A stretch of 63,106 nucleotides of DNA, filler included, from Bonamia ostreae (GCA_040357525.1; 45 parts of 45 records of this genome joined end to end with filler, not necessarily neighbours in it), one strand, 5' to 3'; shown: positions 14,133 through 58,826, counted from the first letter of the whole stretch. The notes: generated by a model not told the origin, from the letters alone. Made by a program: numbers and translations.

Positions 14133-15410
14133 GTTCGGAAATGGAAATATTAGTGGAACGGCTGCGCTCGCTTATTAACACGGACAAAAAGAAAATAAAC
14201 GTCGTCGGAAACGCCAACTTTTGGATCGGAAAAGCGAAGAAACAAAAGAAAAATTTCCAAAAGTCGAAAAAATGGACTATCGTTAAAATTTGAAAATTTA
14301 GGACTATTTTGAGAAAACGATGATTTCCAAAGAACACGTCAGCTTCGTCGACCCCTTTTCAATGGCGCGCATAACTGACCCGGTCAGAGGCGAAAAGTGC
14401 GCGCACTTGCAAATATTCGACCTGAAGACGTTTGTGGAGCGATGGTACCTCGCCAACTCGAAGAAGATGACCAAAGCCTGCTGGCTCTGTCCCATCTGCG
14501 CGCAGCAGACGCACCCCCGGAAGCTGTACGTCGACTCCTTCATGCAAAACGTTGCTAACACCATCTCAAGCTCATCGAAAACAACCCGTCGAAGGACGAA
14601 GTGCTGTTGGACGCGAACGCGAAGGTGGTCGAAATGGCGCCCGACAGCGCGGCCAAGAAAGACGAAGTGATCGAGTTTGGCTCCAGCGACGACAACGAGG
14701 CGTCCTCCGACGAGCCATCCAAAAACTCGTCCAGCAGACCTCCGAAGCCGCCGTCTCCTCCGCCTGCCGAAATGCGCTCCGCGTTTGGCAAGAGCGCTCC
14801 ATCTTCCGCCGGAATTCGCTCGACGCGCAGTAGTCTCCAGCTCAACTACGGCTTCCGCGGCGGCGGTTTGGCGGCGAAAGACGGCAACCGACCTGGCTCC
14901 ATCCGCGTTTTCCCCGCTTCGAGATCTCGACTCCTCGTCCGTCCTGGCGGGAAAATGGAGTCGCCTTATAGAATGCCGCACTTCGGTCCGCCGCGAGTGG
15001 ACTACAAGCGCTTCCGGCCGACGGCGGGAGAAAAGTCCTCGAAGACGGAGCGGTCGCAGCAGGCGAAACGCGTTCCTCCGCCAGACCATCCCCCGCCGCC
15101 CACCTCGTTCTTCGCTGTAACGCGGAGCAAAGGGGGTGACAAGCGGCGAGTGCCGCCGGATCCGCCTCGGCCAAAGAAAACCGTCTCCGGAAAAGTCCTT
15201 CGGAAGACGGACAGCGGCGCCGCATCCAAAAACAGTAATTTGGAAGAGGCGCCGGCTCGGTTCGTAATCGCCTTCTCGGAAGAAGAATGGACGGACAACG
15301 AAACCAAAAATTCGCAGTTGCCTTCGTTGTCGCGAGAAAACAAAAAAATTGGAGGAAACAAGAAGGTGAAAAAGAAGCTCAAAAGAAAAAAACCGCGTGT
15401 ACAAAAATAG
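14133..15410 (+). CDS. MIZ/SP-RING zinc-finger protein (PIAS/Siz-like SUMO E3 ligase), 5'-partial (protist)
   Basis: VSFVDPFSMARITDPVRGEKCAHLQIFD...WLCPIC...LYVDSFM is an SP-RING. The 20-nt introns 14282-14301 and 14551-14570 join it to a SIM-like VIEFGSSDD and a Pro/Ser-rich tail. Confidence 0.85.
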
Positions 15411-16953
15411 ACTTTTTTAATAAATTTGTTAGAAATTCTAGAANNNNNNNNNNNNNNNNNNNNNNNNNNNNNNNNNNNNNNNNNNNNTTAATTAATTAAN
15501 NNNNNNNNNNNNNNNNNNNNNNNNNNNNNNNNNNNNNNNNNNNATTATCTAAATCTTGTATTCTTTATAGATGCTGTGAGATTGATCACTGTCCGTTGTA
15601 TTTACCTCTGTATACAAATACTTATTAACATCAAAACTTGTCACTAGAAACATTAGTACAGGCTAGTATATTCACATATAAAAGGGATAAGGTAATGAAC
15701 AGTGATCCATGTCATAAATCGTATATAGAATATAACATCGAAAACAGGTCAAACGCGGATCACTGTATCTCGCGAAAAAATGTGTTTACGTAGATGCTGG
15801 TAGGCCACCTGCTGTCGTAAAATTATGTAAATTTGTATGTAAATCAATTCATTTGTTCGATTTTAATTCGGGCATGAATTGTACTAATGTTTGATTACTC
15901 AGTAAACATTTGGGCTCACAAGTACTAATTTTCAGCATCACCAAAGCAGGCGATAAACATACAGCTGCATATTATACAAATGATGATTATTGATTAGCCC
16001 AATGTTACACTGAAATGATCATGGATAAATCTGTAAAATTCACTATGTTTAAATAAATGATTATTTATAGTATTCAAATCGAAAGTACTCTAATGTGTTT
16101 AATTTTCAGCATTATCTAAAAGCATCGTACTTAAATGATATCTCATTTCCTTCCAATTCATGTATTTAAAAAGAAAGTACTTCCATATGCGTGTTTTATC
16201 ACATGCCTTGAAAATCACCCCGTTTACACGAGATAATTATTTATCATATTTATAAAGAAAACATCGATATGTCCATTTTCTAAGATTCTCTGAATCAAGG
16301 GTGCTTTTATAAGAGGATTATTTATTATACTTGAAGAGAAAAAAATCAATACGTCTATTTTTCAAAATTCTTTAAATGGAATGTTTAAATGAGACGCTTA
16401 TCTATGATATTTAAAACGAAAAACACCTATGTCTGTTTTGCACGTTTCTCAATAATTCACCATCGTTTAAATCATCATTATATATAATATCTAGCAAGAA
16501 AAACACCCAAACGTCAATTTTCGATTTTAGCTTAATTCGCCTATTTTAGTCAGAGACTATGCTTTTCTTCGGGAGATGACATTCTTCCTCCAAGCTATGT
16601 ATGATTTCATGTTTGTTCTAAGGTGATGTTCCTCTAGTACAAGTCGTCATGCTTCTTCTATGGAAATATTGTTCCTCCTGTGTCCTACGGGGCTAACGTT
16701 TTAACTGTGAAGTGTTTTTTTAATCAAGGAGTTTCTGCGCAATGTTTTTTTCATGGTTTTACATTGAAAATCCTACTCCTTGGAATTGATCACTGTTAGT
16801 TACCTTTACCTGTTAATTTTTTAAAGGTACCTGTTCGATACTGAACGGTGGTTNNNNNNNNNNNNNNNNNNNNNNNNNNNNNNNNNNNNNNNNNNNNTTA
16901 ATTAATTAANNNNNNNNNNNNNNNNNNNNNNNNNNNNNNNNNNNNNNNNNNNN

Positions 16954-17748
16954 GTGAACCTTTTTGTCAAAATCGAAAAACATTTTTTCCCCATCCATTT
17001 GTCTGCACTTCGTAGCCCAAACTCTGAATACATATTAATTCGACTTTGGTCGATTTCATAATATTCTAACCCGATGGCGTGAGCCAATTCTCTTGCTACG
17101 CCCAAAACACCGCAATTTGGGTTGACACCGACAAAATGACGCCCTTTGTCAGCAAATCTCCATTGCTCTGAAAAGCAACGATCGGCTCTCGTAAAATAAA
17201 TGTAATCAGTTTGATTTATTCGCAATGTAAACCGCCATTTTGTCTATTTTTATTGCTCACATTGAAGTTTTTGTGATAACAAATATGTACTTGTACTGTG
17301 ACAGTAAAAATTTAGACTGATTTCAAATCAGTTTATCGATTTAACTGATTCCAAAACAACATTCTCATTGCAACACAATCTTTTAACCAAACAAAAACCT
17401 CAATTTTGAGAATTTCGAAAGCAGAAAAAATATTTCGAACATCTTTTTTCGTAAGATTGCTTCCCAGAACATAAGGGATAGGACAATCCCACACAGAAGG
17501 CAATGCTTTCCCGCATTTATACAATGGCACAAAAATGTTTTCCTAAAAAATAAAAAGATTACTTCGAACACGCAATATTCTTTTTTACTGTATCTATGGA
17601 CACATCTGTGCAATTCGACAAAAGGGTTTCCCGTTTCTCTGAAAATTCTTTTTGTGCAAATGTAATTTTGGTCATTTAAAATGGACGAAAGTCGCAAATT
17701 CGCCATTTGTAACAATAAAAAAATTCTAGAAATGTTCATTTTAACCAT
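16954..17748 (-). CDS. Astacin (M12A)-like protein with a degenerate zinc motif, 3'-partial (protist)
   Basis: WDCPIPYVL...IFSAFEIL|TKWRFTLRINQTDYIYF...RCFS...NCGVLGVARELAHAIGLEYYE follows the astacin motif order. Introns at 17543-17562 (20 nt) and ~17245-17398. Confidence 0.6.
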
Positions 17749-56981: not shown

Positions 56982-57227
56982 TTAGAACAAGCTCCCTCCT
57001 CTCGATGCTATTACATTCATGTTAAATAATCTTATACGATCTATGAGAGAGGTATAAACCTTTAGATTGTGGCAAATAATGATCATGTAATGATTCATCT
57101 CAAGTAAAAAATAATTGATACTAGCTGTCTTTACAACCTTTTTAGTATTCCTATGTGATAATTGCCACATTATCGCAATTAGAAAGCCTATAAGGAATTT
57201 AAATACATCAATCGAATATCTTATCAT
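56982..57227 (-). CDS. Small hypothetical protein (phage-like contig)
   Basis: 81-aa ORF ending immediately before the terminator hairpin. Confidence 0.35.
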   Translation of the reverse strand: MIRYSIDVFKFLIGFLIAIMWQLSHRNTKKVVKTASINYFLLEMNHYMIIICHNLKVYTSLIDRIRLFNMNVIASRGGSLF

Positions 57228-57655
57228 ATTGAATAAATATTTAATTAAAAAGCCCTATCATGCAAATATAGCTATTTACATAATAGGGCTTATACTTATT
57301 TCTTTAGGAGCAAAAGCAAAAGATCAATGTTCTTGTTTAAATTGCTGGTTATCTCCTCCAATTTTTTCTTCTTAGAATTTCCCATGCCTGTATCTTAATT
57401 CGATGGATATTGATATTAGATGGAAAGACAAAACAATCTCACCTAGAGAATTATTCACATCAGCACCCAATTTTAGGTAGCTGTAATCATTGGTTCCTAC
57501 CCATAAGGATAGTTTGAACGATCTAAGGATTNNNNNNNNNNNNNNNNNNNNNNNNNNNNNNNNNNNNNNNNNNNNTTAATTAATTAANNNNNNNNNNNNN
57601 NNNNNNNNNNNNNNNNNNNNNNNNNNNNNNNATGCGTAAGTGTTCTCGTTTATTC

Positions 57656-58826
57656 TTAATAAAATACGTAGCCTGGATCATTATCGATTGTAGTCGATAC
57701 ATATTTTTTAACTTGTGGATTTTGTTTAGTGTAGAGGGCGAATACGATTTCAAATGTGAAAATTCCTCCGATTACATTCAAGGTCTTCATTTAAGAATAA
57801 AAACAGTGATTAATCTGTCTAAGAAGCAGTCAAAAGTGATAAGAACAGATTGCAATCGGGTAGAGACTGTGACACCGATCGAATTGCAAACGACATTCAG
57901 AAAGACAATAACAGATAATGGCACGGGACTGTTTGCTATAGTGACCATAATTACTACTATCGCCAAAATGATATAATGACCAAAATCGAGAGGTTTTCCG
58001 TTCATCACCGCGACGAAAATAGTAACGACTGTGAAATAAACGGCTGAACCGCTCATTTGGAATGTACTCAACATTGTCATAATAAAATTGGTTTCTTTTT
58101 CATAATTCGGGTGCCGATTTTTTCCGACTCTGTTTTAAATATTTTGATAACAAATATTTTTTTATACATCGTTTAATTATTTTGAAACGATATAAAACAT
58201 TATCATCTGACTCAATGCAGTAGCACTACTTGAAGTCGAAATAGCAGTTACAATCGGATCTTTGTACTCCTTCAAAATTTGGAAAGGATTCTTTTGGATT
58301 ACAACTCCACACAAAACACAGTACACGAAAAAACAAGCAACAATGGCTTAATTTTATTAAAAAAACATCCGATAAACGTGTACGCGAGAGGATATATGCT
58401 TACCAATCCGTCCAAGTCTTTTATCAAAGCGACATTTTTTGCGATTATTGCAAAAACAGCAAAAGAAGTGAAGTACATAAAGAAGTTTACAATCGAACTG
58501 ATTGTTTCATAGAAAATGCTGACCATTTGAAACATCTGGCCTTCTGAACCATCTTTTTTATCGTCATGTTTTGAAAAATAGTATCCCAAAATCATAAAAA
58601 TGCACACTATCGCTAACAAGTTCCCGTCAGCTTGTGCCTTAAAAATATTGTCTGGGAGGGCTTTTCCGATCATGTCGATTATATTTTCGAAGAAACCCTT
58701 TTCTATTGATTTGCCGGACGTGTCTCCAAGTTCTAAATTTTTCGATACGTTCAAAAGAGATGGGACGGTGATTGCTGTAGAGATAGTAGAAACGATAATA
58801 GAAGTTATTAATGTCCATTTGGCGCA
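57656..58826 (-). CDS. Divergent SLC1/DAACS (dicarboxylate/amino acid:cation symporter) transporter, 5'-partial (protist)
   Basis: LPDNIFKA...NLLAIV, KNPF, TAISTSSSATAL (HP1), QMSGSAVY (TM7), FDCFLDRLIT|TLNVIGG (TM8). Introns 58347-58366 (20), 58130-58198 (69), 57785-57804 (20). Confidence 0.88.

Follow-up and report, generated by a model that had tools for sequence, protein, structure and literature searches.

Results and Discussion

Origin of the contigs in the window

We analyzed very short introns in genes of Bonamia ostreae, a haplosporidian (Haplosporida, Ascetosporea, Rhizaria) that infects flat oysters (PMC11069148), in a window of 63,106 nucleotides. The window is not a single locus; it consists of 45 contigs of 1293-1315 bp each, which are ordered by size and separated by N44-TTAATTAATTAA-N44 spacers. 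A survey of open reading frames (ORFs) together with Pfam searches distinguished three kinds of contigs. About 15-18 contigs carry eukaryotic housekeeping genes, which are broken up by very short AT-rich gaps. Further contigs are of another kind; one contains two Ig-like exons separated by a 130-nt intron and another an NHL-like ORF, and both are presumed to come from the host. Two contigs are bacterial- or phage-like in appearance. This agrees with an initial annotation of the same DNA, according to which the window mixes parasite with other DNA.

The product of the ORF at 32801-33691 shares 100% identity with the NCBI entry 'hypothetical protein MHBO_003539 [Bonamia ostreae]', and for the Rab-family ORF of contig 37 the matching entry is 'Ras-related protein Rab2BV [Bonamia ostreae]'. 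Because the encoded proteins match NCBI proteins named for B. ostreae, the intron-bearing contigs can be assigned to this species. A dicyemid origin, which had been suspected from the short introns, is ruled out by the protein with 100% identity to the B. ostreae entry. An alternative genetic code is also ruled out, since no reassignment of stop codons opens the frames consistently. A search of the window for tRNA genes found none.

Reconstruction of the introns

For each pair of neighboring ORFs from one gene all frame-compatible GT..AG segments were enumerated, and the segment was chosen that preserved the ORFs and, where this could be checked, homology. This procedure resulted in 27 modeled GT-AG introns on 12 contigs (Table 1). 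The following candidates were dropped before the counts: both junctions on contig 9, which have multiple solutions; contig 23, which has none; the second junction on contig 36 (49884-49966); the 3' ends of contigs 24 and 43; a donor-only GTTTAT at 128 on the minus strand of contig 1; an acceptor-only CAG at about 52113 on contig 38; and scan candidates on contigs 2, 19 and 31. The dropped segment on contig 36 lies between two ORFs that resemble parts of one large gene, and a search for a frame-compatible GT..AG segment between them found none; it is possible that this gap is a non-canonical intron, that a micro-exon is missing or that there are two separate genes. A scan for ORF-joining GT..AG segments was too noisy as a detector and was kept as a null only.

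Sixteen of the 27 introns have independent support from public annotation, continuity of a Pfam profile or alignment with homologues. When two NCBI-named B. ostreae proteins are mapped onto the DNA, they have breaks precisely at four of these introns, namely the intron of the RRM/eIF3b-like gene (P0001) and the first three introns of the Rab-family gene (P0002). Colinearity with Pfam profiles and homologues backs 12 introns beyond these four; the Pfam coordinates run on across junctions in the Rab, SDF, RPS29 and LUC7 genes. The P4-ATPase gene on contig 38 provides a further example. Residues 1-342 of its spliced five-exon model align as a single piece to 36 of the best 40 rows, with E values down to 1.7e-55, and all of these best-scoring aligned rows are P4-ATPase homologues; exon 1 alone reaches E = 2e-14 to the best homologue. 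In an alignment of 10 sequences the junctions that follow residues 238 and 315 contain no gaps and lie within the conserved blocks KDPRD..LYCKGAD and TAIEDRLQ. Both of these junctions have a GTCAAA donor and an AAG acceptor. Two DNA-type runs match contig 38 without differences, so that the intron segments on this contig are truly present in the DNA.

A search for public spliced models of contigs 11 and 38 gave only unspliced ORFs (P0163 and P0013). The Rab model P0002 skips the fourth intron of its gene and reads on to a stop (51798-51856, contig 37), while the Ras profile continues in the next ORF. This public model is probably shortened by a missed ultra-short intron.

Intron lengths and splice signals

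The introns are 15-104 nt long with a median of 22 nt; 14 of the 27 have 22 nt or less and seven have exactly 20 nt. Their GC content is 0.22, compared to 0.36 in the 6-nt exon flanks. Position +3 of the donor is T in 21 introns, A in four, C in two and never G, which leaves a purine in 4/27. T also occupies +4 in 18/27 introns, while positions from +5 onward are background-like (G at +5 in 2/27). The donors begin with GTTT in 16 cases and read GTTTTT in seven; as the initial annotation had stated, none (0/27) reads GTRAGT. On the exon side there is no preference for AG in the last three bases, with G at -1 in 7/27, and on average the 27 donors agree with the consensus CAG/GTAAGT in 3.9 of its 9 positions. 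U12-type introns have an extended donor motif, and no donor (0/27) starts in the manner of this minor class with GTATCC or AT.

At the acceptor, position -3 is A in 15 introns, T in seven, C in five and G in none, so that YAG is found in 12/27. A pyrimidine tract is missing, again in agreement with the initial annotation: the fraction of pyrimidines is 0.50 at -15 to -4 and 0.52 in intron interiors. The 16 independently supported introns have T at +3 in 12 and AAG in nine cases. A occurs at -9 in 17/27 introns (P = 0.026, uncorrected) and at -8 in 15/27; with n = 27, a branch-point motif is indistinguishable from the AT-rich background. A single case deserves to be recorded here: the intron at 14551-14570, which at 45% GC is the sole GC-richer one among the short introns, includes the word GCTAAC, similar to a classical branch site, 11 nt from the acceptor.

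The counts given previously for the range 14282-58366 were reproduced closely. The ends of this range recur in our list as the first (14282-14301) and last intron (58347-58366, minus strand). T at +3 had been reported in 21 of 26 donors and AAG in 14 of 26 acceptors; within the same range we obtain 19/24 and 13/24 respectively.

From these data it is likely that the segments are genuine spliceosomal GT-AG introns of B. ostreae nuclear genes, miniaturized to a median of about 22 nt, in which GU and AG are the only fixed signals and the donor leans toward U at +3 and +4.

Splice signals and base composition

A different explanation is that the pattern reflects composition alone. In this case only GU and AG would be read, no donor motif would exist, and positions +3/+4 and -3 would be unconstrained and merely mirror the T-rich 5' half and the A-rich 3' half of the introns. 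The first half of the short introns indeed contains 49% T. In AT-rich context on the same contigs any GT is followed by T in 53% of the sites (n = 512), and non-donor GT sites within the introns are followed by T in 10/19. The word GTTTTT occurs 88 times in these contigs where a first-order Markov model predicts 88.3. T at +4 differs from the interior T content (P = 0.0026) but not from the value of 0.53 (P = 0.11). A at -3 is in no excess over interior A (0.43; P = 0.12); hence the AAG acceptors represent A-rich intron composition without a pyrimidine preference at -3. Position +3 speaks against a purely compositional origin. The 21/27 T are still above 0.53 (P = 0.0075), the supported subset is at a similar level, and purines at +3 are found in 4/27 donors compared to 29% after GT in AT-rich context. 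Composition as the whole explanation is rather unlikely. For comparison, chance ORF-joining GT..AG candidates have T at +3 in 61/118 cases on parasite contigs and in 22/45 on host contigs.

The initial annotation had described the splice signals as non-consensus at both ends and had proposed to compare +3 T with the background T of introns. The donors are truly non-consensus, while the AAG acceptors turn out to be compositional. T at +3 lies well above interior T (0.38-0.40), with P = 3e-5 to 8e-5 depending on the value used, and its excess over T in GT context is modest. The departure from the usual eukaryotic signals, with few purines at +3 and no pyrimidine tract, is beyond doubt. With no more than 27 introns, the prevalence of U at +3 may represent either selection or a lack of constraint at this position.

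Two further candidate signals were rejected. GTRAGT seemed depleted in the parasite contigs, with 1 observed and 7.7, 6.1 and 3.9 expected at Markov orders 1-3, both strands pooled, but this depletion is not robust. A hairpin between a 5' U-run and a 3' A-run was sought in the 18 introns that do not exceed 32 nt. Their mean minimum free energy is -0.18 kcal/mol compared to -0.40 +/- 0.18 kcal/mol in shuffled sequences, and 446 of 500 shuffles are at or below the observed value.

The contigs of the host were said to have normal donors, and this could be checked only weakly. One clear non-Bonamia intron, that of the Ig-like exon pair at about 3037-3165 on contig 3, has a GTAAAC donor and a pyrimidine-rich TTGTAG acceptor. 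GTRAGT words number 15 in the host contigs, which is below the expectation from composition and hence no proof of host donors.

Several points weigh against reading the segments as miniaturized introns with a U-leaning donor. GT and AG at the ends of 27/27 introns are imposed by a search for GT..AG only; for the four introns used by the NCBI-named proteins the ends are independent of the search. ORF continuity is the sole basis for 11/27 introns. In an RNA check on contig 38 the candidate RNA runs among 8 rows that match the window or part of it were X4 (guessed RNA, share 0.39) and X6 (RNA, share 0.10); X4 yielded one 236-nt RNA-like contig within exon 1, X6 yielded nothing, and no joints were found. 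This result is neutral on splicing. The excess of T at +3 over the GT-context null is real-looking but modest, and it becomes borderline when about 10 positions are allowed for. GTTTTT is low in specificity and may have its origin in composition. Finally, the introns of B. ostreae are called 'canonical' in PMC11069148, which in its accessible portion gives about 2 introns per mRNA and no lengths or motifs.

LUC7 and recognition of the donor

Positions +3 to +6 of a donor normally pair with the 5' end of U1 small nuclear RNA (snRNA) and with the ACAGA box of U6. Judged from their low number of consensus matches, the parasite donors can form only poor pairing with the 5' end of a canonical U1. 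The LUC7 gene, which codes for a factor of 5' splice-site selection that is associated with the U1 small nuclear ribonucleoprotein (snRNP), is retained as the initial annotation had claimed. It had been placed at 24053-24378 and is confirmed by a match to PF03194 at 24016-24321 on the minus strand. The gene itself carries a 27-nt intron with a GTTTTT donor. At its 3' side (24021-24052, minus strand of contig 18) one of two possible acceptors would leave a 13-nt micro-exon, followed by a GTTGTT donor at the contig end. An Rfam search of the window for snRNAs gave no hit at gathering score or at E<=1.

The introns, their boundaries and the composition statistics are observed, and all that we propose for snRNAs and proteins is inferred. 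If the segments are genuine miniaturized introns, the major spliceosome would define each of them as a single short AU-rich unit. The acceptor would be read without a pyrimidine preference at -3 and without a tract, AAG mirroring the A-rich sequence. A donor of GU plus U(U) would have almost no pairing to the canonical U1 5' end, and because of this the choice of the donor must rest on something else. This could be a divergent U1, or it could be the later pairing with the U6 ACAGA box, in which U at +4 would pair and U at +3 would wobble, a point made for Entamoeba by Roy and Bowser. Protein helpers, for example the retained LUC7, might act alone or in combination with these.

In a more far-reaching form, which we offer tentatively and with some doubt, B. 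ostreae would splice introns of about 15-30 nt at donors that are unable to pair with canonical U1. Either the U1 5' end would be re-tuned to GUUU, independently of the Archamoebae and as the second case of this kind, or U1 would be dispensable and Bonamia a living intermediate toward the mikrocytid spliceosome, in which U1 or U5 have not been detected.

The first of these options requires a U1 5' end with A opposite +3/+4, like the ACAAAC of Entamoeba, so that GUUU donors would pair normally. Entamoeba and Mastigamoeba provide a precedent (10.1101/2022.06.08.495308), and both the frequency of GTTT and the retention of the U1 snRNP-associated LUC7 are in line with it. However, the Bonamia donors are far less uniform than those of Entamoeba, of which 88-90% read GUUUGU, and their +5 and +6 positions are background-like. 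Furthermore, standard U1 is kept in most lineages with atypical donors according to the same source, and the Rfam search of the window gave no snRNA for inspection. A co-evolved U1 seems rather improbable. The second option is that U1 is lost or vestigial and that U6, U5 and proteins fix the 5' splice site in an intron of constrained length. Such a situation is reported for the mikrocytids, where only U2, U4 and U6 snRNAs and 17-19 spliceosomal proteins were identified and the introns have 16-17 nt (PMC10245619). The poor match of the Bonamia donors to the consensus would fit this option, but the retained LUC7 and intron lengths that are not tightly fixed do not. In addition, the loss of splicing genes is reported to be enriched in the ancestor of paramyxids and mikrocytids, not in Bonamia (PMC11069148). 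Recognition independent of U1 is quite unlikely. That the introns are an artefact of wrongly joined chance ORFs, assembly errors or another genetic code is very improbable, since, although chance GT..AG open-frame joins exist (118 candidates on parasite and 45 on host contigs) and 11/27 introns are without independent support, four introns are in the public annotation, 12 more are colinear with Pfam profiles or homologues, contig 38 recurs without differences in two DNA-type runs and no alternative reading of stop codons opens the frames consistently; for the 16 supported introns this explanation is already largely refuted.

Comparison with known systems

The initial annotation had seen in these signals a candidate for an undescribed system. 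This is overstated: ultra-short introns with reduced signals have been published for mikrocytids (PMC10245619) and for dicyemids and myxobolids (PMC13644364), and donors with U at +3 and +4 together with a co-evolved U1 have been described for Entamoeba (10.1101/2022.06.08.495308).

In Mikrocytos mackini and Paramikrocytos canceri, which belong to the sister order Mikrocytida, 217 of 224 introns have 16 nt and the rest 17 nt; their sequence is highly conserved and they occur in few genes (PMC10245619). Bonamia shares with them the class Ascetosporea, the parasitism of marine invertebrates, an AT-rich genome, introns at the lower limit of known lengths and a spliceosome that is in question. In contrast, the lengths in Bonamia are variable (16 nt does not occur and 17 nt occurs once), there is no shared internal sequence, and the introns sit also in transporter and enzyme genes.

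The donors of Entamoeba are GUUUGU in 88-90% and GUUUGN in 97-98% of the cases, with an additional U at +7, and the pairing region of its U1 is ACAAAC; better pairing with the U6 ACAGA box, a low intron density and conserved 3' intronic sequences are also noted (10.1101/2022.06.08.495308). Bonamia resembles this parasite, which also has an AT-rich genome, in the replacement of the usual purines at +3/+4 by U. It differs in that GTTT is present in only 16/27 donors, that G at +5 is rare, and that the full GTTTGT does not occur (0/27; best match 5/6 positions).

Myxobolid myxozoans and Dicyema have introns with medians of 22-27 nt, a 5' signal of about three letters 'GTa', a 3' 'AG' and no pyrimidine tract (PMC13644364). 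The short median, the reduced signals and the weak enrichment of A upstream of AG are similar in Bonamia (A at -9, see above). Unlike in these animals with their GTa logo, +3 is A in only 4/27 and T in 21/27 Bonamia introns. Introns of 18-21 nt in chlorarachniophyte nucleomorphs and of 15-16 nt in heterotrich ciliates, both cited in PMC10245619, have a comparable minimal length, the former also in a rhizarian cell; they fall into narrow fixed length classes, unlike the introns of Bonamia. Together, Bonamia works like the ultra-short-intron systems with the +3/+4 U of Entamoeba added, and it is without the defining features of the mikrocytid or the Entamoeba type.

A literature search for intron lengths and splice-site motifs of Bonamia gave no result in the accessible parts of the publications, including PMC11069148, PMC9329632 and PMC13746701, the supplements of which may hold such data. 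The transcriptome paper on B. ostreae (PMC9329632) leaves introns and splicing unmentioned in the part that is accessible.

Other features of the window

The GC content of coding sequences varies strongly among Bonamia genes; long ORFs have 48-59% on some contigs and 30-40% on others (Table 1). The introns and flanks are similarly AT-rich in both groups of contigs. The split in coding GC is not simply contamination, because one of the GC-rich genes is named for B. ostreae. Several Bonamia contigs have AT-rich tandem arrays, with periods of 28-62 nt and 2-12 copies, at their ends or close to them, and these arrays probably explain the assembly breaks there. On contig 35 (48112-48430) RPS29 on the minus strand and the Nsp1/Nup62-like gene on the plus strand face away from each other, and less than 100 nt separate their likely starts. 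Just downstream of RPS29 (48041-48100, minus strand) there is a weak Rfam match to a C/D-box small nucleolar RNA (E = 0.13, below gathering score).

Contig 21 contains a G+T-rich satellite (28228-29258) in about 15 copies, with periods of 31 and 153 nt and a GC skew of +0.58; there are no recognizable genes on this contig. A palindromic element at 20573-20649 on contig 15, which is presumed to come from the host, is likely an inverted repeat; its matches to two unrelated families of microRNA precursors, on opposite strands, both fall well short of the gathering score (E ~6e-5).

Table 1. Modeled introns and other features of the window, with coordinates counted from its first nucleotide.
Feature	Coordinates	Strand	Length (nt)	Donor...acceptor	Basis and remarks
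Intron, nucleoporin-like gene	4593-4624	+	32	GTTACT...AAAAG	In-frame join of two ORFs; ORF continuity only
Intron, nucleoporin-like gene	4780-4799	+	20	GTTTTA...AAAAG	ORF continuity only
Intron, SP-RING (zf-MIZ) gene	14282-14301	+	20	GTTAAA...TTTAG	ORF continuity; downstream exon zf-MIZ, E = 3.4e-11
Intron, SP-RING (zf-MIZ) gene	14551-14570	+	20	GTTGCT...TCAAG	Required for the join of a 122-aa with a 283-aa ORF; two GC-rich alternatives, also 20 nt
Intron, WD40 gene	23592-23613	-	22	GTTTTT...AAAAG	ORF continuity
Intron, WD40 gene	23289-23315	-	27	GTTTTT...TTTAG	ORF continuity; holds in-frame stop
Intron, cytochrome c haem lyase gene	24642-24661	-	20	GTTTTT...CACAG	Upstream exon is Cyto_heme_lyase profile 77-267 of 299; best frame-compatible join
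Intron, LUC7 gene	24322-24348	-	27	GTTTTT...ATTAG	Profile begins at position 10 at first residue after acceptor; 10-aa exon 1 upstream
Intron, LUC7 gene, acceptor uncertain	24035-24052	-	18	GTATTT...AAAAG	Profile match ends near donor; 32-nt alternative ending at 24021
Intron, THUMP-domain gene	27436-27496	-	61	GTTTCA...ATAAG	ORF continuity; downstream exon THUMP, E = 1.9e-7
Intron, RRM/eIF3b-like gene	32779-32800	+	22	GTTCAG...TTAAG	NCBI-named B. ostreae P0001 maps as 32623-32778 + 32801-33691
Intron, ribosomal protein S29 (RPS29) gene	48239-48258	-	20	GTTTTC...TTTAG	Ribosomal_S14 profile 19-52 starts at acceptor
Intron, Nsp1/Nup62-like gene	48739-48819	+	81	GTATAA...TTAAG	ORF continuity; upstream exon matches Nsp1_C
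Intron, Nsp1/Nup62-like gene	48927-48981	+	55	GTTTAG...GACAG	ORF continuity only
Intron	49615-49629	+	15	GTTTTT...TTTAG	ORF continuity; alternative donor at 49609 (GTTAAA) gives 21 nt; both donors GTT
Intron, Rab-family GTPase gene	51369-51400	+	32	GTAAAT...TAAAG	NCBI-named B. ostreae P0002 maps across
Intron, Rab-family GTPase gene	51490-51546	+	57	GTTTGC...AACAG	P0002 maps across; Ras profile 1-29, then 29-113
Intron, Rab-family GTPase gene	51615-51635	+	21	GTTTTA...GTTAG	P0002 maps across with split Ile codon
Intron, Rab-family GTPase gene	51798-51819	+	22	GTTTCG...TGCAG	Downstream ORF carries on the Ras profile (106-148) from its residue 3; not in public annotation
Intron, P4-ATPase (flippase) gene	52609-52652	+	44	GTTGCC...AAAAG	Spliced model aligns 1-342; junction in variable region
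Intron, P4-ATPase gene	52733-52749	+	17	GTTTAA...TAAAG	Junction after conserved Phe; alternative acceptor 52752 also AAG
Intron, P4-ATPase gene	52892-52983	+	92	GTCAAA...AAAAG	Gap-free junction after KDPRD within KDPRD..LYCKGAD in 9 homologues
Intron, P4-ATPase gene	53215-53265	+	51	GTCAAA...AAAAG	Gap-free junction within TAIED(R/K)LQ
Intron, sodium:dicarboxylate symporter (SDF) gene	58347-58366	-	20	GTTTTT...TTAAG	SDF profile ~216 at donor, resumes at 216 at acceptor
Intron, sodium:dicarboxylate symporter gene	58130-58198	-	69	GTTTTA...AACAG	SDF profile 262, then 276, colinear
Intron, sodium:dicarboxylate symporter gene	57785-57804	-	20	GTTTTT...TGAAG	SDF profile ends at 371 at donor
Intron, protein kinase gene	59284-59387	+	104	GTAGGA...TTTAG	ORF continuity; sole listed solution keeping whole downstream ORF
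LUC7 exon 2	24016-24321	-			Pfam PF03194, E = 5.7e-22
Bacterial/phage-like contig	18366-19672				DnaB N-terminal domain, Pfam E = 6.6e-5
Bacterial/phage-like contig	56237-56887				Long ORF, no Pfam match
Presumed host contig, example	2833-3501				Ig-like exon pair
Presumed host contig, example	35259-35891				NHL-like ORF
Contigs in comparison of coding GC	1-1315, 14133-15443, 24002-25310, 32447-33751, 59026-60319 versus 50657-53346, 57632-58925
AT-rich tandem arrays	25224-25310, 26853-27108, 31101-31470, 49261-49434, 60112-60319

Implications

At least one public B. ostreae gene model reads through a 22-nt intron and ends early; proteomes that are predicted without introns shorter than about 30 nt are therefore likely shortened. 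The question of how a 5' splice site is chosen when it has hardly any complementarity to U1 has been raised for ultra-short introns (PMC13644364) and for atypical donors (10.1101/2022.06.08.495308). Since Bonamia keeps a few introns per gene as well as LUC7, and since its relatives have 16-17-nt introns without a detectable U1, co-evolution of U1 can be tested against its loss with public data. The public B. ostreae data could decide whether U1 is re-tuned or dispensable or whether the signals are simply relaxed. With Bonamia there would be one more lineage, and in it ultra-short introns and atypical donors are combined.

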